From a virus (taxonomy: Duplodnaviria > Heunggongvirae > Uroviricota > Caudoviricetes), in IMG/VR virus record IMGVR_UViG_2681813233_000009: a DNA stretch of 14,363 nt; one strand, given 5' to 3'. Positions 5,468 to 14,106 of this stretch are shown in pieces (the stretch's first letter is position 1; each line of letters begins with the position of its first letter). Under the pieces are notes generated by a model. It was given only the letters and a program-made list of their open reading frames with translations, was not told the DNA's origin and did no database searches. The position numbers were made by a program, and so were the translations under genes.

Positions 5468-6551
5468 AATCTGGCTCTCTCTCACCCTCGCGGGTGGGGA
5501 AGGATATTTATCCTTTTGTGTGGATACTTGCCGCCCCTGGTGGCGTCACGTCGAATAGCACCAACCTTTTGGCAAATACCCACAAAAAAGAACCCGGCTG
5601 GAGGAACCGGGGTGGACAATGTAACTTACTGTATGATCACTTGTTTTCCTGTGTAGCCTCAGAGCCTTACATGATTTGCTTTCATGGTTCAGCAAAGAAG
5701 CCACAGAGGAAAACGGGCACCCTGAACGCGCCCGGAAACCATCGACGCAAATCAATAGTTTATCGTTGAGACCAGGTAACCAGCCCGGCCCAACTGTGAC
5801 CCCGTGGAGGGTCGATACAATTGAAGGAGATTCGCTTGTATTCTGAAGAGCCGCAGTTAGCGACGCTTTAGAATAGGGCCTGTGGCGCAAGCACTATGAT
5901 TAGAGGCGTTTTGAATCGTAGGAGTGAAACAATCGGCGGAACTTGAGGAGAGGACCGCACACAAAGCATTCTGGCAAGTGGAGTTGAAAGAACACTTTGG
6001 GTGAGGGCCGGGGCGGGGGAGAAGCCGCCCGGCTCACTCAGTACAGATCCTAATTGCACACGTTGCGACTCTGTACAGGTGGGGGGCGTGACAAGCTGCA
6101 AAACGGTAATTTCGATATCCTCGCCACACCCCACACCATGTATATTAGTTTAACACGAATGATTATCATTTGCAATAAAAATTAATTGCATTGTGTTGAG
6201 TCTTATGATATTGGCGGCCACACACGTGACGGATCAGATCTGCATTAATTTTTATTAGTGAGTGGTCTGACTCAGGGAGGGCTATGTGTCCCAAAAGACA
6301 CACGAAGTAATAATAGATATATAAGACCTCGCTACGCTCGCCCTCCGGGTCCGTCTTATTGATCTTATATAATAACTTCATTCAATAACTAATTGTTTTC
6401 ACAATTAATCATTTCATTCGTTATTATATGATCTTAAAACCTTCTCGCCCTTTGGGCTTACCAGGTTTTAGGCCGGGGCCTATTTCCCCACAATGTAGAG
6501 TCTCGCCTGTGTGGCTCATCTCCCGGGGGGCATTTTGAAACAAGGGTGTAC

Positions 6552-6612
6552 TGACAAAATGTCACAACGTGTTATGACAGATTGGCACAACGTGTTATGA
6601 CAAAATGTCACA
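6552..6612. promoter_or_regulatory. Cluster of dyad-symmetric repeats (operator- or iteron-like)
   Basis: 17-mer cacaacgtgttatgaca occurs twice (6563-6579 and 6586-6602), 6 bp apart; 15-mer tgacaaaatgtcaca occurs twice (6552-6566 and 6598-6612); each unit is itself a near-palindrome (TGACA-aaa-TGTCA; TGTCAcAACG/tGTTaTGACA). Confidence 0.5.
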
Positions 6613-7052
6613 TAATAAGATAAGTATATAAAACACCCTTAAAAGACAAACACCTAGGGCCAGGTCAAGATCTTAAAGAGATTGAGGGTGAATTATTGAT
6701 TGAACAATCAAGAGATCAGACTCTTTAGGAAAGAGCCTTACAGGCTCGCCTCCCTTTTGGGGCAATCGCAGAAACAGAAACCGCAACGCGGTTTTCTTTT
6801 CTGCTCTTTGGGAACACCGGAACGATGTGAAGGTGACATCTGGGCGGCGGGGTGGGGTGCCCGGCGCGGAGTGATACACAGTACAGAACCACAACCCACA
6901 GGAACCAACCTAAACGCGCCTCTGTGGCGCTCTCTCATATGCAGACACGGAAACACCTTATAAACACCCTGCGCCTCACTGAGAGCGTTACAGCGGCTTT
7001 CTATGCCTCTAGCACAATAAACAACTGAGCGCAAGATAAATCAAGAAAGTTG

Positions 7053-9495: not shown

Positions 9496-9870
9496 ATGCA
9501 CCCCTTTGAACTACTGAAACGCCAGCTTGACGAAATGGCGAAATCCCGCCAGGTAGAGCAGGCCCAAGAGGAAGCCGCCGCCCGTGAACTCCGCAAGGCA
9601 CAGGCCGATCTCTCCCTGGACGAGGCTATTGCTCTGTACGGTACACAGTTGGAAGCCTCCACCGATGCAGCAGACAGCGCCCAGAAGGGCCGCGCCATTA
9701 AGAGCCGGGGAATTGCTCTGTGTCACAAGGATCAGGGATTCAGCGCCAACGGTCGCCCTGTGTCTCTCCTGACCAAATCAGCAGATCTGCCAGCAGGTCA
9801 CCGCCGGGTAATCATCAACAAAGCAGCAGGGCGCACCCTGAAGGCTATCAATCTGGAAGGGGCTGAATAA
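9496..9870 (+). CDS. Hypothetical protein, 124 aa, translationally coupled to the tape-measure-like gene
   Basis: ATG at 9496 with AAGGA RBS; its stop overlaps the next ATG (TAATG at 9868-9872). Confidence 0.6.
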   Translation: MHPFELLKRQLDEMAKSRQVEQAQEEAAARELRKAQADLSLDEAIALYGTQLEASTDAADSAQKGRAIKSRGIALCHKDQGFSANGRPVSLLTKSADLPAGHRRVIINKAAGRTLKAINLEGAE

Positions 9871-11990
9871 TGAGCGGTAACGTCATCATCACGAAGACCG
9901 TAAACAGAACTACGTTCACCACGGACGGGGCCAGCTATAAGAAGACGGTTGACCGTATCAAACAGGTGGGGAAAGAGTGGGATAAAGTCTCCTCTAAAAT
10001 GAAGCCTCTACGGATGAAATTTGAGGAAAACGCCTACACCAAGATCCGCCGGAAACAGCAGGACGCCACCGCAAAAGCAGCACTGGCAGAAGCCAAAGCC
10101 AAAGCCGCAGCGGAAGCCAAAGCGGCAAAAGCCCAACTAGCAGCGGAGCGTAAACTCCAGACAATCCGCGCTAAAGCTATTCGCTTTAATACCGCAGCGG
10201 CTAACGCCAACGTTACCCCGGCCCAACGTGCTGGACACCTCCAGGAGTTTGGACAGCTTACGCGCCAGTATCACGCCGGGTCTATGGCATTACAGGAATA
10301 TAACGCCCGTGTGTCACGCCTTCAGCAAACCATGCGCCAACAAGGCCGGGTAGGCATGAGGGGAGCCACAATTCCCGTAACCGCCAAAGTAAACAAACTG
10401 GATACCTCCATGATCGAGGGTGCAGGCGGGGCGATCACAATTGCCGCCACTGTGGCACTCTCCGGCAAGATCATGACTACCGGACAGGATTTTGAATCCG
10501 CTATGTCTGGTCTTACAGCGATCACCGGTTCCACAGAAAAAGCCGGGAAAGAGTTTGATTATCTTCGTGAACAGTCCAACCGTCTGGGGCTGGACCTTCT
10601 GAAAACTTCAAAAGACTATACGCAGTTTGCCGCCGCTGTTGGGGACAAACTCCCTAAAGACCAGATGCGATCCATCTTTGAGGGTGCTTCAGAGTGGGGC
10701 CTTGTTACTGGTGCATCCGCAGATGAGCAATCACGTGCGTTAAAGGCCCTTAACCAGATGATGTCTAAGGGTACGGTCATGAGTGAAGAACTTAAAGGCC
10801 AGTTGTCCGAGGCTCTCCCCGGCTCTGTGGGTCTGTTCGTTAAAGCCCTTAACGACATGAAAGGCGTTACCAACCTGACCGAGCAAGATTTGTTTAAGCT
10901 GATGGAAGACGGGAAGCTGTTCTCTAAGGACATCCTCCCACATGTGGCTAAACAGATGAAGGAAGCGGCCCGGCAGGGTGGCGCACTTGATAAGGCGATG
11001 AAGTCCAACCGGGCATCATGGCAGCGCCTCAATACCAGTATGCAGAACGCTATGAATGTGTTTTTCACTTCTGGCTTCGGTAACTCCCTTACCAACGCTT
11101 TCGACTCAATCAGCGCCGCTATTGACGGATCTGGTGGAGCCTTTGAGATGTTCGGGCATATCGCCGGGAAAATCGTTGAAGGTGCCACAGATGCGTTTAC
11201 AGAGTTGCATGACACTGTGATCCTGACCTTCCGCATTATTGAGTATTACGCCGCCAAAATGGGGATCAGTGGGGAGCAGCTCAAAGCCTGGGGAGAAATG
11301 GCAGCATATGCCGCCGGGGTGGCTCTGTTCGCTGGCTCTGTTTACAAGTTGGGCGGGGCTTTCAAGTGGGTCCTCACCATGCTGAACCCTCTTACCAAGT
11401 TGTTGGGAGTCATGAAGGGGATCGCCGCTATTGGTGGCATTGAGGCCGCTTCTGAAGCTCTGAGCGACGGTAAGCCAGGTAAAGACGGCCAGCCGGGCAA
11501 ACCGGGAACCCCATCAAAGAACACCAAGCCGATCGGCGCGGGCCGTGGCGTTAACTTTGGCCTCCCGGCTATTATCGCCGCTGTATCTCTGAATGACCGC
11601 CTTGATCAGATTCAGGCAGACCCGGAAGCGTTTAAGCGAAAGGTACAGGAGAATAATGATCGGCCTACGCTGTGGACTGACATCATGGAAGCATTCTCCG
11701 GCAGTTGGTACGAAAAGCAGCAGAACGCAAACCAGCAGGCAGCACAGACCGCAGCACTCGATCAGACTGTTCGTGTTGCTGTTCCAACCTTCATCCCTCC
11801 AACCACAGCGACGGTTACAGGTGGCTACGGTAATCCACTGATGACGCCGCCAGCGTGGCTAAACCAGCCGCTAAACGTGAGCGTTAATGTGAAGGTGCAA
11901 GATGGACAGGTGAAAAACCTTGTGCAATCTGAGATTGAACGTAATGAACAGGCGGCATTTAACATGCTGATGCAGGGCGGGCCAAACTAA
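9870..11990 (+). CDS. Phage tail tape-measure-like protein, 706 aa
   Basis: N-terminal Ala/Lys-rich coiled-coil (AKAALAEAKAKAAAEAKAAKAQLAAERKL); central segment LKGQLSEALPGSVGLFVKALNDMKGVTNLTEQDLFKLMEDGKLFSKDILPHVAKQMKEAAR resembles the conserved tape-measure motif as I recall it; hydrophobic Gly/Ala-rich segments; collagen-like GKPGKDGQPGKPGTP; followed by a terminator. Confidence 0.8.
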   Translation: MSGNVIITKTVNRTTFTTDGASYKKTVDRIKQVGKEWDKVSSKMKPLRMKFEENAYTKIRRKQQDATAKAALAEAKAKAAAEAKAAKAQLAAERKLQTIRAKAIRFNTAAANANVTPAQRAGHLQEFGQLTRQYHAGSMALQEYNARVSRLQQTMRQQGRVGMRGATIPVTAKVNKLDTSMIEGAGGAITIAATVALSGKIMTTGQDFESAMSGLTAITGSTEKAGKEFDYLREQSNRLGLDLLKTSKDYTQFAAAVGDKLPKDQMRSIFEGASEWGLVTGASADEQSRALKALNQMMSKGTVMSEELKGQLSEALPGSVGLFVKALNDMKGVTNLTEQDLFKLMEDGKLFSKDILPHVAKQMKEAARQGGALDKAMKSNRASWQRLNTSMQNAMNVFFTSGFGNSLTNAFDSISAAIDGSGGAFEMFGHIAGKIVEGATDAFTELHDTVILTFRIIEYYAAKMGISGEQLKAWGEMAAYAAGVALFAGSVYKLGGAFKWVLTMLNPLTKLLGVMKGIAAIGGIEAASEALSDGKPGKDGQPGKPGTPSKNTKPIGAGRGVNFGLPAIIAAVSLNDRLDQIQADPEAFKRKVQENNDRPTLWTDIMEAFSGSWYEKQQNANQQAAQTAALDQTVRVAVPTFIPPTTATVTGGYGNPLMTPPAWLNQPLNVSVNVKVQDGQVKNLVQSEIERNEQAAFNMLMQGGPN

Positions 11991-12060: not shown

Positions 12061-12627
12061 TCATAACAGATCCGCTATTGAATATTTATCACTAAAATCA
12101 TCTACTTTGCGTTGTGTGGCCCCAATGTAATGAAGCGTACTGGATAACGATTTGTGCCCTAATGCTTTACTAATTACAGCTATATCCTCCCCATTGTCAT
12201 AACCAATCGTTGGTTTACTCTTCCTCATGCTGTGGGTCGAAAGATTCAGCCCCAGCTTTTCCCCGGCGTAGCTAATTTCCTCATGCAATTTGGAGCGGCT
12301 CACAGGTTTTCCCTTGCTCCTGTGGCTGTCCAACTGTAAGAGGTACACATTATCAGGGTTAGCCTCTCTCCGGGCCGCTATGATGCGTTTAGCGGTATCG
12401 GTAAGCCTCACCCGGACAGATTCACCCGTTTTCTGTTGGGACAGGACAAGGTGATCGCCTTTGATGTCGGCATAACGGATAGAGCGCAGATCCGACACCC
12501 TCAGCATTAATTCATAACCCAATAACCAGGCGTCACGGTACAGCGTCAGCCCCTTGCCCTGTTTGAGTAGCTCAACTGCTACCGCTTTCACTTCCTGAAC
12601 TGATTTACAGCCCTCTACGAAATTCAT
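12061..12627 (-). CDS. Small tyrosine recombinase, catalytic domain only (FimB/FimE-sized), 188 aa
   Basis: ATG at 12625-12627 (minus) with GGAGAG RBS; the track ORF begins at an upstream TTG without an RBS; motifs LRVSDLRSIRYADI (Arg), HSMRKS (His-x-x-Arg), LGHKSLSSTLHY (His and Tyr). Confidence 0.8.
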   Translation of the reverse strand: MNFVEGCKSVQEVKAVAVELLKQGKGLTLYRDAWLLGYELMLRVSDLRSIRYADIKGDHLVLSQQKTGESVRVRLTDTAKRIIAARREANPDNVYLLQLDSHRSKGKPVSRSKLHEEISYAGEKLGLNLSTHSMRKSKPTIGYDNGEDIAVISKALGHKSLSSTLHYIGATQRKVDDFSDKYSIADLL

Positions 12628-13020
12628 TCTGTACTCTCCAGAACCTAACTGTGATAAATTTTTGATCAAAAACAAGCACTTGTAAACGACAAAAATTATT
12701 AATTTTAAGTTGTGTCTTTTTAGTGAATTAAATCGGGTTTAATCGCGTTTAATGGCAGAGTAATGACCCGGCAGGGGAGGTAATGGGCTGTTTATGTGGG
12801 TAAAAGATGGTTGCTTAATGTACTATTACCACAAGACGGGTAAGGTGATTTGACTCCCTCAGTTCCTTTAAGCTACTGTATTTATGGGAAATTAATTATT
12901 GTTTCTTTATGGTGTTGCCTGGCAAATTTTCAGTTTACCCTCAAGAAAAATCCCCATCTTTTTTATTCTCCACATGAGAATAAATTTTGTTTGCAAATAT
13001 CACTCATTCTCAACTCCAGT

Positions 13021-13199
13021 CGGGGCGAAAGCCTTCGCCCCTTAAAGGGCCTTTGTAGGCTCGCTCTCTGTATGCGCCTGTGGCGCTACCACTCTCAACC
13101 CTGTGGGTTTGTATGGCTTGCCACAAGATAACGCGCCACAGGCGCACAGGGGAGGCGGACGCCTCCTGGGTGGCCCGGCTGGGCCACTGGTCCACAGGG
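13021..13199. other. GC-rich structured non-coding segment (multiple hairpins and a paired palindrome)
   Basis: Hairpin ggggcgaa/ttcgcccc (13022-13041); palindromes gcgcctgtggcgc (13074-13086) and its exact reverse complement gcgccacaggcgc (13133-13145); hairpins ggaggcg..cgcctcc and ggccc..gggcc (13150-13185); the only ORFs here lack RBS and context. Confidence 0.35.
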
Positions 13200-13588
13200 T
13201 AAAAGGACAGAATGGTATTGTGTTGTTATTAAGTTGTTGAGATTAAAGGGATGTCTTAGGGGGGACTGTAGTGGAGGAAGGTTGGGCAGGGTTTAATCAG
13301 AATGCAGGTCACTCGGCAGGGAGTGCCCTTAGATATTTGGCGAAAATACACGTGACCCCCCAGGGCCTCAGGTTGAAGGGCCTAGCAACAATATCCAAAC
13401 TCCCGGATATTTTCCCACCCAACTGGAAGGAATCCGCCCCTATTTTCTGTTCGTGTATAAGTTAGGCTGAGGGAGGCTTGCCAATGTACACCCCCTGGAT
13501 TTGGTGATCTGTTAAGTTATTGATTTTGATCGATTTTAGATCAATCATCCGTTGCCGGGATTACCCCCACCCAGACGGATGGCACACA

Positions 13589-13771
13589 ATGAATAACGAT
13601 AAAGCAAACCACCCTAAACACTTCCAATACTTGGGCCGCATGGTCACTGTTTACCCTACATACATCATTATTGACGGTATCAAGATTAGCCGTTCCCGTC
13701 TTTCCTTTGCATTCCAATTGGAATTGGCAAAAGCACTTCGACTGCATGAAGAAAGCGTATGCAGAAAATAG
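13589..13771 (+). CDS. Hypothetical small protein, 60 aa (alternative TTG start at 13520 gives 83 aa)
   Basis: ATG at 13589 with a weak GGA-containing RBS; followed by a strong terminator; no family recognised. Confidence 0.35.
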   Translation: MNNDKANHPKHFQYLGRMVTVYPTYIIIDGIKISRSRLSFAFQLELAKALRLHEESVCRK

Positions 13772-13807
13772 ATTTCATTTAAATCTTCACGACTGAATAA
13801 TTTACTT

Positions 13808-13832
13808 AAGCCGCCTTATGGGCGGTTTTTTT
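13808..13832 (+). terminator. Rho-independent terminator
   Basis: Stem ccgcc/ggcgg (13811-13815 with 13821-13825), loop ttatg, followed by a 7-T run (13826-13832). Confidence 0.6.
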
Positions 13833-13981
13833 GTGCCTGCCATTTATCTGTGGGTCACAACGTGAGACACAAACTGGGACACAGAGGATTTTTTAGGGTT
13901 GAGTCTTTGGCTTCCCGCTGGCATGATCCAGAACAGGGATTAACGGGACGTTAATCGCAAGCTTTTGATTTTGTTTTATTT

Positions 13982-14106
13982 GACTCGGGGTGCCCTTCTG
14001 CGTGAAGGCTGAGAAATACCCGTATCACCTGATCTGGATAATGCCAGCGTAGGGAAGTCACGGACCACCAGGTCATTGCTTCTTCACGTTATGGCAGGAG
14101 CAAACT
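13982..14106 (+). promoter_or_regulatory. TPP (THI-box) riboswitch of thiM: aptamer plus expression platform
   Basis: Sequence gactcggggtgcccttctgcgtgaaggctgagaaatacccgtatcacctgatctggataatgccagcgtagggaag matches the E. coli thiM TPP aptamer as I recall it (including the conserved CUGAGA element); it runs into the thiM RBS (aggag at 14096-14100). Confidence 0.9.
14033..14052. repeat. attR-side copy of att core, lying inside the TPP aptamer
   Basis: Identical to positions 1-20. Confidence 0.7.

Follow-up and report, generated by a model that had tools for sequence, protein, structure and literature searches.

A conserved array of GC-rich hairpins adjoins a dif-like core site near a small tyrosine recombinase gene in a satellite-like island of Escherichia coli

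We analysed a 14,363-nucleotide (nt) stretch of DNA (IMG/VR virus record IMGVR_UViG_2681813233_000009; hereafter, the window), a segment of an Escherichia coli chromosome that carries an island of about 14 kb between rcnR and thiM, and focused on a cluster of hairpins at positions 13021-13199 (hereafter, the array). The array sits within a non-coding block of about 960 bp, and the initial annotation had correctly placed it between the gene for a small tyrosine recombinase (12061-12627, minus strand) and an open reading frame (ORF) of 60 amino acids (aa) near the right end of the island (13589-13771, plus strand). Immediately to the right of the hairpins lies a previously unannotated dif-like quasi-palindrome, TAAAAGGACAGAAT-GGT-ATTGTGTTGTTATT (13200-13230; hereafter, the core), whose left arm is 11-12 nt from the end of the array. 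The rcnR-thiM island was found in 28 out of 5426 complete E. coli genomes, and the same island was also present in Pectobacterium, Kosakonia, Cronobacter and several metagenomes. It encodes a 451-aa integrase, a lambda-E-type capsid protein together with a decoration-like protein, and a replication-initiator-like helix-turn-helix protein; because of this gene content, including the capsid and decoration genes, the island looks like a phage satellite.

The G+C content of the array was 0.648, compared with 0.361 for its left flank and 0.484 for the island. The dense cluster of GC-rich hairpins described in the initial annotation was borne out: we found three perfect hairpins of 7-8 bp, one hairpin of 6 bp and a 14-nt inverted repeat. 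These are hp1, a perfect 8-bp GC-rich palindrome (GGGGCGAA-AGCC-TTCGCCCC, 13022-13041); hp2, a 6-bp hairpin (GGGCCT-TTGT-AGGCTC, 13047-13062) with one G.T pair in the window; the perfect inverted repeat, whose halves (TGCGCCTGTGGCGC at 13073-13086 and GCGCCACAGGCGCA at 13133-13146) lie 46 nt apart; hp4, a perfect 7-bp palindrome (GGAGGCG-GA-CGCCTCC, 13151-13166); and hp5, another perfect 7-bp palindrome (GTGGCCC-GGCT-GGGCCAC, 13170-13187) and the hairpin nearest to the core. The mutually complementary 13-mers reported earlier are present, but each is itself palindromic (GCGCC-TGT-GGCGC and GCGCC-ACA-GGCGC), and the pair can equally be described as one palindrome occurring twice with its centre flipped. 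These two 13/14-bp palindromes (GCGCC-TGT/ACA-GGCGC, 13073-13146) are 60 bp apart from centre to centre and flank a highly conserved 46-nt spacer, which contains two small palindromes of its own (AACCC-TGT-GGGTT, 13097-13109, and CTTG-CCA-CAAG, 13117-13127). Near copies of the GCGCCTGTGGCGC palindrome lie in the centre of the island at 5876-5888 and 6916-6930 (GGGCCTGTGGCGC; GCGCC-TCTGT-GGCGC), and CCTGTGGCGC occurs three times in the window against 0.03 expected occurrences. Repeats elsewhere in the island were limited to matches of 9-11 nt.

Folding of both strands, a check suggested together with the original description, indicated that the array is far more stable than shuffled sequences (z -4.6 to -6.3 on both strands). 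With RNA parameters, the predicted folding energies were -101.6 kcal/mol for the plus strand (z -4.58) and -100.3 kcal/mol for the minus strand (z -5.36), and none of 200 shuffles folded equally stably on either strand. With DNA parameters, comparison with dinucleotide shuffles gave z values of -4.88 and -6.32 on the two strands, again with none of 200 shuffles as stable. None of 2000 dinucleotide shuffles contained as many perfect hairpins (stems of 6 bp or longer) as the array, and none of 2000 reached its five copies of CACAG/CTGTG, for which 0.54 copies were expected.

Searches of Rfam 15 at gathering and at permissive thresholds (E up to 10) did not match the array to any family. Across the window, the thiM thiamine pyrophosphate (TPP) riboswitch alone passed, and the best scores in 12600-13900 were 16-20 bits, compared with gathering scores of 41-100. 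No tRNA or transfer-messenger RNA genes were found. A scan of 12500-13900 revealed no sigma-70 promoter-like sites upstream of the array on either strand and none at all on the plus strand; the three promoter-like matches in the non-coding block were all on the minus strand, to the left of the array and directed towards the recombinase gene. No terminator-like site followed the array in our scan, and the sole terminator-like call within it came from the palindrome arm at 13133-13146, which folds locally on the minus strand. None of the five hairpins was followed by a run of T residues on either strand. We ruled out coding sequence because the variants of the array differ by a 14-nt deletion and by 1-nt indels, which is incompatible with the overlapping ORFs. 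We also rejected a genomic repeat of the REP, BIME or MITE type: the array occupied one place per genome in the 28 E. coli genomes, always in the rcnR-thiM island. No phage or plasmid record showed DNA similarity to the array.

We recovered 16 distinct variants of 13005-13245 from four genera (represented by E. coli, Pectobacterium, Kosakonia and Cronobacter) and aligned 14 distinct variants of 13011-13205. The mean column identity in this alignment was 96%; the AT-rich flanks, compared by eye between the window and two E. coli islands, were roughly 80% identical. Columns were variable at 19% of the positions in stems, compared with 60% in hairpin loops and 42% in linkers, and the 46-nt spacer and the linkers were strongly conserved too, far above the flanks. 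The array had the same orientation in all E. coli-type loci recovered. The hp1 stem was invariant in 13 out of 14 variants; its AGCC loop was inverted in place to GGCT in one variant (L094) and read ATTC in Cronobacter. The GGAC centre of hp4 was inverted in place to GTCC in two variants (L001 and L004), and hp2 proved dispensable, having been removed by the 14-nt deletion in three Cronobacter-type islands (L086, L088 and L089). In E. coli 11PC (L003, 8990-9010), about 650 bp corresponding to window positions ~12498 to 13145 were deleted, from the interior of the recombinase gene to the middle of the array. We considered and rejected a site-specific event here: the junction lies at a CAC microhomology and looks like an ordinary deletion.

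Covariance analysis across homologues, the second check that had been suggested, yielded no compensatory changes at any of the 57 predicted pairs (RNAalifold, 14 distinct variants), a weak test because these variants are only about 4% diverged. One-sided stem changes that kept G.U or G.T pairing affected five pairs on the plus strand versus one on the minus strand, and changes that simply broke a pair were about as numerous as those that kept G.U or G.T pairing. A covariance model (R1) built from the E. coli-type alignment returned only fragments with E values of 7.8-9.1 from 85 other loci, and thus nothing beyond the near-identical family.

The initial annotation had offered a recombination site as one of two interpretations of the hairpins. 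A tyrosine-recombinase core-type site does exist, but it is the quasi-palindrome at 13200-13230 rather than the hairpins to its left. Judged by its sequence, the core is a genuine site of this type, because its arms co-vary with the recombinase clade, its spacing is fixed and its central triplet is variable. A 17-mer within it (GACAGAATGGTATTGTG, 13206-13222) matched regions upstream of distant Pseudomonas recombinase homologues, the proteins of which are about 40% identical. The Pseudomonas layout is fixed: after CTAATTAACAGAAT-nnn-ATTGTGTAAATTAG come two more half-sites, which overlap the -10 region and the ribosome-binding site. When we scanned 230 nt upstream of the recombinase gene in 56 distant loci, the best 11+11 palindrome started 111-129 nt before the ATG in 33 of them; the palindromic dif-like site typically lies about 114 nt upstream of the gene, with arms of 11-14 nt. 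The arms change with the recombinase clade, being CTAATTAACAGAAT / ATTGTGTAAATTAG in Pseudomonas, AAGTTCCCAAA..TTTGGGAAC in Idiomarina and TAAGTAACACAA..TTGTGTTACTTAG in Methylococcales, and the complete core reads TTAAGTAACACAAT-ATAA-ATTATGTTACATGA on a Macrococcus plasmid and CTAATTGCTAAAA-GCAC-GTTTTAGCAATAAG on an Alteromonas plasmid. Between islands, the core arms were kept and the central triplet varied (GGT, CAC, CCC, ACT and ACA). Inter-island homology broke just to the right of the core, at ~13253, and resumed near 13466. The core arms resemble the XerD arm of dif (TTATGTTAAAT).

Two other uses of the core region were considered and rejected. An invertible switch would call for a second, inverted core, and the window has none (the 17-mer occurs once even when three mismatches are allowed); all E. 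coli-type loci also had one orientation. As for a bridge-RNA-like guide, the 9-nt complementarity of the inner loop (13098-13106) to the segment adjoining the core (13192-13200) was not kept where the latter segment varies.

The recombinase encoded at 12061-12627 is a 188-aa protein that comprises the catalytic domain only. Its catalytic residues (R43, H132-x-x-R135, H158 and Y167) were invariant in a 15-sequence alignment, and only about 42 residues precede the first catalytic arginine. Residues 38-175 aligned to positions 122-259 of the 263-position XerA model, and the core-binding and arm-binding domains are absent. The best NCBIfam matches were XerA, XerC and XerD, and the best solved structure was that of a XerC-like protein, with family scores far below the cut-offs (50.2 bits versus 220 for XerA and 37.4 versus 335 for XerC); weak NCBIfam matches to invertase subfamilies were also obtained (E 1e-5 and 9e-4). 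Catalytic-domain-only recombinases of this family, about 184-197 aa in length, are widespread in Gammaproteobacterial islands and on Firmicutes and Vibrio plasmids (loci L008-L084, L121 and L122). Among the plasmids with homologues, one from Macrococcus encodes a MOB_P relaxase of its own, and others from Vibrio and Alteromonas are typed as non-mobilisable.

Serratia islands, the recombinases of which are 77-79% identical to that of the window, have a counterpart of the array. A GC-rich palindrome array of about 190 bp adjoins their core on the recombinase side, at a distance of 16 nt. The Serratia array is completely different in sequence and cannot be aligned with the E. coli type; the E. 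coli-type covariance model did not find it, and it matched nothing in Rfam. Common to both array types are GC-rich palindromes centred on ACA/TGT, and the Serratia arrays contain three to four copies of CACAG/CTGTG against about 0.3 expected. Between Serratia variants (L085 and L117 versus L090), one palindrome centre was flipped and the long-range pairing partners were rewired; what is conserved is therefore the local palindrome rather than a single overall fold. Folding of the L085 array mildly favoured the strand that matches the plus strand of the window (z -3.1 to -3.4, versus -2.1 to -2.5 for the other strand).

Taking these results together, we tentatively favour the reading that the array acts in cis, as a DNA arm belonging to the locus targeted by the small recombinase, with the core at 13200-13230. 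We prefer a DNA arm to an RNA gene because the array abuts the core and a Serratia array of different sequence recurs in the same place; because stems, spacer and linkers are all strongly conserved, with stems that are perfect palindromes and loops in which flips are tolerated; and because arrays that cannot be aligned share a palindromic motif, with neither transcription signals nor covariation. Building on these findings (a conserved set of hairpins, and a core linked to the recombinase family), we infer binding, cleavage and a role for the hairpins in the reaction as follows. A recombinase dimer would bind both core arms and cleave beside the variable central triplet. The 178-bp array beside the ACAGAAT arm would supply structure or accessory binding sites; its palindromes may extrude as hairpins in unwound or single-stranded DNA, or may bind a symmetric protein, and the arm would confer polarity and selectivity on the reaction. 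This proposal takes two forms. The array and core may resemble the GC-rich inverted-repeat origins of transfer (oriT) found near mpsA in SGI1 or upstream of mobK and tcpM, at which one strand is nicked by a tyrosine-recombinase-like enzyme; alternatively, the array may be the accessory arm of a multimer-resolution site for a replicating island, as in cer and psi. The two forms fit about equally well, and we divide our support for a DNA arm roughly evenly between them. Some evidence, namely the plasmid homologues of the recombinase and the capsid genes of the island, points to a multimer-resolution role with a dif-like site instead of transfer.

Several observations weigh against a DNA arm, or against one of its two forms. 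The third Serratia type (L091) is GC-rich beside the core but folds no better than shuffled sequences (z 0.65 and -0.10). A metagenomic relative (L118), with a recombinase 79% identical, has a core and extra half-sites without an array, and the Pseudomonas, Idiomarina and plasmid relatives likewise have a core and extra half-sites with neither an array nor room for one. Because L118 and the distant relatives have a core but no array, the array is not needed by the recombinase family in general; it is a lineage-specific addition to a widespread module of core plus recombinase. The palindromes differ among themselves, so that one binding protein cannot explain all of them, and the roughly five-to-one bias of one-sided stem changes towards G.U/G.T pairing on the plus strand would fit RNA too. 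The accessory arms of resolution sites such as cer and psi are not known to be GC-rich hairpin arrays. Since the island looks like a phage satellite, with capsid and decoration genes, a conjugative oriT is unexpected in it. No relaxase model was among the NCBIfam matches returned for the recombinase, and homology to TcpM was not detected by BLASTP (E 0.17), in a family, MOB_M, whose members are barely similar to one another (PMC8152469).

The closest parallel to the oriT form is SGI1, the oriT of which is a 125-bp inverted-repeat array near mpsA, the gene of a tyrosine-recombinase-type relaxase, with 60% G+C in a 44% backbone and 95-100% conservation of the array (PMC6414798). A transcript of 650-700 nt spans this GC-rich oriT, and transfer requires the 3' part of the transcript, which is encoded in the interval from oriT to mpsA (PMC9299015). 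Like the SGI1 oriT, the array consists of perfect and imperfect inverted repeats that are GC-rich relative to the backbone (178 bp, 65% versus 48%), lies a few hundred base pairs from a tyrosine-recombinase-type gene in an island with a separate integrase, and is more conserved than its surroundings. SGI1 differs in that MpsA is much longer (catalytic Y319) and needs MpsB, whereas the recombinase here has 188 aa and no partner ORF in the window; in that no dif-like palindrome has been reported there; and in that the island studied here has capsid genes rather than conjugation-related genes. No sequence relation between the recombinase and a MOB_M protein could be shown. In the Cronobacter, Serratia and metagenomic relatives, an ORF of 74-87 aa overlaps the recombinase stop codon (L087, 6591-6854; L091, 3564-3791; L092, 3564-3788; L118, 1000-1227), which suggests translational coupling. 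We considered these ORFs as MpsB-like partners and rejected them: they have no domain match, and the window has no counterpart.

The array and the core palindrome lie in non-coding DNA upstream of the recombinase gene. MobK of pIGRK has its catalytic tyrosine at Y179 and no core-binding domain, and its oriT is in the intergenic region upstream (PMC8152469); on pCW3, three consecutive hairpins lie just upstream of tcpM. MOB_M proteins have recently been reported to be abundant in chromosomal islands next to integrases and to be often annotated as integrases (bioRxiv 10.64898/2026.01.13.699239). The recombinase resembles MobK and TcpM in lacking core-binding and arm-binding domains, with the catalytic tyrosine of MobK near residue 179 (PMC8152469), and the cis sites of MobK/pIGRK and TcpM/pCW3 are similar to the arrangement here in being intergenic, upstream of the gene and composed of several inverted repeats with a G-rich element. 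The MobK and TcpM sites are directly at the promoter, however, whereas about 390 nt of AT-rich DNA intervene here.

The core itself, two inverted arms with a short variable centre, is like those of single-recombinase Xer systems (XerS/difSL, XerH/difH and XerA/dif) and of TnpI/IRS of Tn4430; in most relatives it lies just upstream of the gene, with extra half-sites towards the promoter. The recombinase does not score as XerC, XerD, XerS, XerH or XerA, and it lacks the core-binding domain that all those enzymes have, but the linked two-arm core site is present. The array is missing in most relatives. In cer and psi, an accessory arm of about 180 bp lies on one side of the core and binds PepA together with ArgR or ArcA. 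The small tyrosine invertases FimB and FimE are of similar size (about 200 aa) and also have a short N-terminus, but the window has no second, inverted core site, and the E. coli-type loci have a single orientation.

A structured RNA was the other interpretation in the initial annotation, which spoke of a small RNA. In this reading, the array would be the gene or a functional domain of a structured non-coding RNA transcribed on the plus strand, from the recombinase side toward the core, like sgm-sRNA of SGI1, Rcd of cer or an unrelated satellite small RNA (sRNA). The predicted fold is very stable (z -4.58), every stem has its own sequence, as expected where pairing alone matters, and stems vary less than loops; the five plus-strand pairs that kept G.U, against one on the minus strand, and the mild preference for the matching strand in Serratia L085 point the same way, and SGI1 needs RNA transcribed across its oriT (PMC9299015). 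Against this stand the lack of any Rfam match even at E up to 10, of plus-strand promoter-like sites in 12500-13900 or minus-strand ones upstream, and of a terminator-like site after the array. None of the 57 pairs was compensatory, and the covariance model found no relative outside the near-identical set. Loop inversions are tolerated, Cronobacter has lost hp2, no co-variation accompanies the 9-nt complementarity of 13098-13106 to 13192-13200, and the long-range helix is not kept between Serratia variants. The proposal of a small RNA thus gained no positive support from signals or covariation; the mild plus-strand excess of G.U-compatible changes leaves room for a transcript or for a single-stranded DNA form, and overall we consider a structured RNA somewhat unlikely. 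An array that is passive is, in our judgement, unlikely: it would be a transcription barrier, insulator or RNA-end stabiliser between outward promoters, or palindromic debris with no specific partner, its perfection maintained by template switching. It would suit the mirror-image promoters of the recombinase gene and the 60-aa ORF, which face away from an 830-bp block, the simple terminator-like hairpin that flanks the core in the Macrococcus and Alteromonas plasmids, the frequent loop flips, which show the palindromes to be mutationally active, and the absence of an array from L118 and the distant relatives. A hairpin with a stem identical to that of hp1 (TTCGCCCCG....GGGGCGAAA) also lies at 1524-1545, in the gap where the integrase and DUF4062 genes converge and where one would expect a bidirectional terminator. 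However, the five hairpins lack a T-run on either strand, with one terminator-like call inside the array (the 13133-13146 arm, minus strand), and in the unpaired 46-nt spacer and the linkers conservation far exceeds that of the flanks. Drift does not readily account for a CACAG-centred motif in two unalignable arrays, nor for the constant position relative to the core in the E. coli and Serratia types.

A replication or packaging signal of the satellite (a site of single-strand initiation or primosome assembly, or part of a cos or pac site) appears improbable. Both single strands fold strongly with DNA parameters, and the array is in the ~960-bp non-coding block together with several conserved motifs. 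Because the island has capsid genes and no recognisable terminase, in addition to a replication-initiator-like gene, a signal on which a helper acts in cis has to be present somewhere on it. Yet the array shows no similarity to any phage or plasmid record and nothing ties it to the replication genes; the iteron-like repeats at 6546-6612 fit an origin better. A cos site was rejected, as there was no match to lambda cosN or to the P2/P4 cos sequence in or near the array.

A bolder reading is highly improbable in our estimate: the array, with or without its RNA, would replace the missing core-binding domain of the 188-aa recombinase, folded DNA hairpins or an sgm-sRNA-like transcript recruiting and orienting the enzyme. 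If true, this would be a new kind of transfer or recombination origin on a capsid-encoding satellite, and the element could move both in phage particles and by a recombinase-initiated route. The hairpin feature itself is real, conserved and not yet described, and we class it as probably a structured arm that acts in cis next to a tyrosine-recombinase site. Islands, plasmids and phages of Gammaproteobacteria and Firmicutes commonly encode catalytic-domain-only recombinases, for which 'integrase' is the routine label; at the present locus, such an enzyme has a defined core site and, in enterobacterial satellites, a conserved structured arm next to that site. If the arm matters for the reaction, it would either link these elements to the recently recognised tyrosine-recombinase-like relaxases with a GC-rich oriT or represent a new kind of accessory arm at a resolution site, and either outcome would help to predict the replication and spread of poorly understood, defence-carrying islands.

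Further features lie in the non-coding block. A half-site-like sequence, TAAAAAGACACAAC, lies near the recombinase promoter on the minus strand at 12709-12722, about 85-95 nt upstream of the recombinase start; its similarity to the core arms suggests this assignment, and its counterparts are AATAAATACACAAG in Serratia and AATAAAGACATAAC in L118. Across the core from the array, non-coding DNA holds two direct GATATTT motifs (13332-13338 and 13406-13412, plus strand), and this motif was found in all enterobacterial island types examined, although the sequence around it has been replaced from one variant to another. Mirror-image homology (18 nt, 83% complementary) links the promoter regions of the recombinase gene and the 60-aa ORF (12664-12681 and 13514-13531, respectively), both of which contain a palindrome with GATC; they lie at either end of the 830-bp non-coding block and face outward from it. 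Neither the 60-aa ORF nor the other small ORFs matched any family. Relative to the core, the recombinase of L118 is on the side that the 60-aa ORF occupies in the window, as though by inversion of the block. In three Serratia islands (L085, L090 and L091), the block (GATATTT motifs, core, hairpins, AT-rich DNA and recombinase gene) has, relative to the TMP_3 gene, the orientation opposite to that in the window, and in the Serratia islands with the reversed block the integrase is at the other end.

Elsewhere in the island, the 706-aa TMP_3 'tape measure' protein (9870-11990; tape-measure domain N-terminal) is kept in every island of the family, beside the replication genes. Among the island ORFs scanned, no portal, terminase or tail-tube family was matched. 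The large non-coding region between the capsid and replication modules contains three tandem repeats of 21-23 nt (GTGTTATGACAAAATGTCACA, 6546-6612), which may serve the island as iterons or operators. Beside the integrase, the window encodes a DUF4062 protein (1556-2578) where the otherwise syntenic island of E. coli SCU-316 encodes an ATP-dependent nuclease (L004, 3008-4456), and this position looks like a variable cargo or defence hotspot. Bases 1-20 of the window recur identically at 14033-14052, within the aptamer of the thiM TPP riboswitch (13976-14072), and island-free E. coli genomes align to the window only from 13982 on, with 100% identity. It thus seems that the island inserts into the riboswitch and brings a replacement copy of the 5' part of the riboswitch, an integration target that is unusual compared with tRNA genes.

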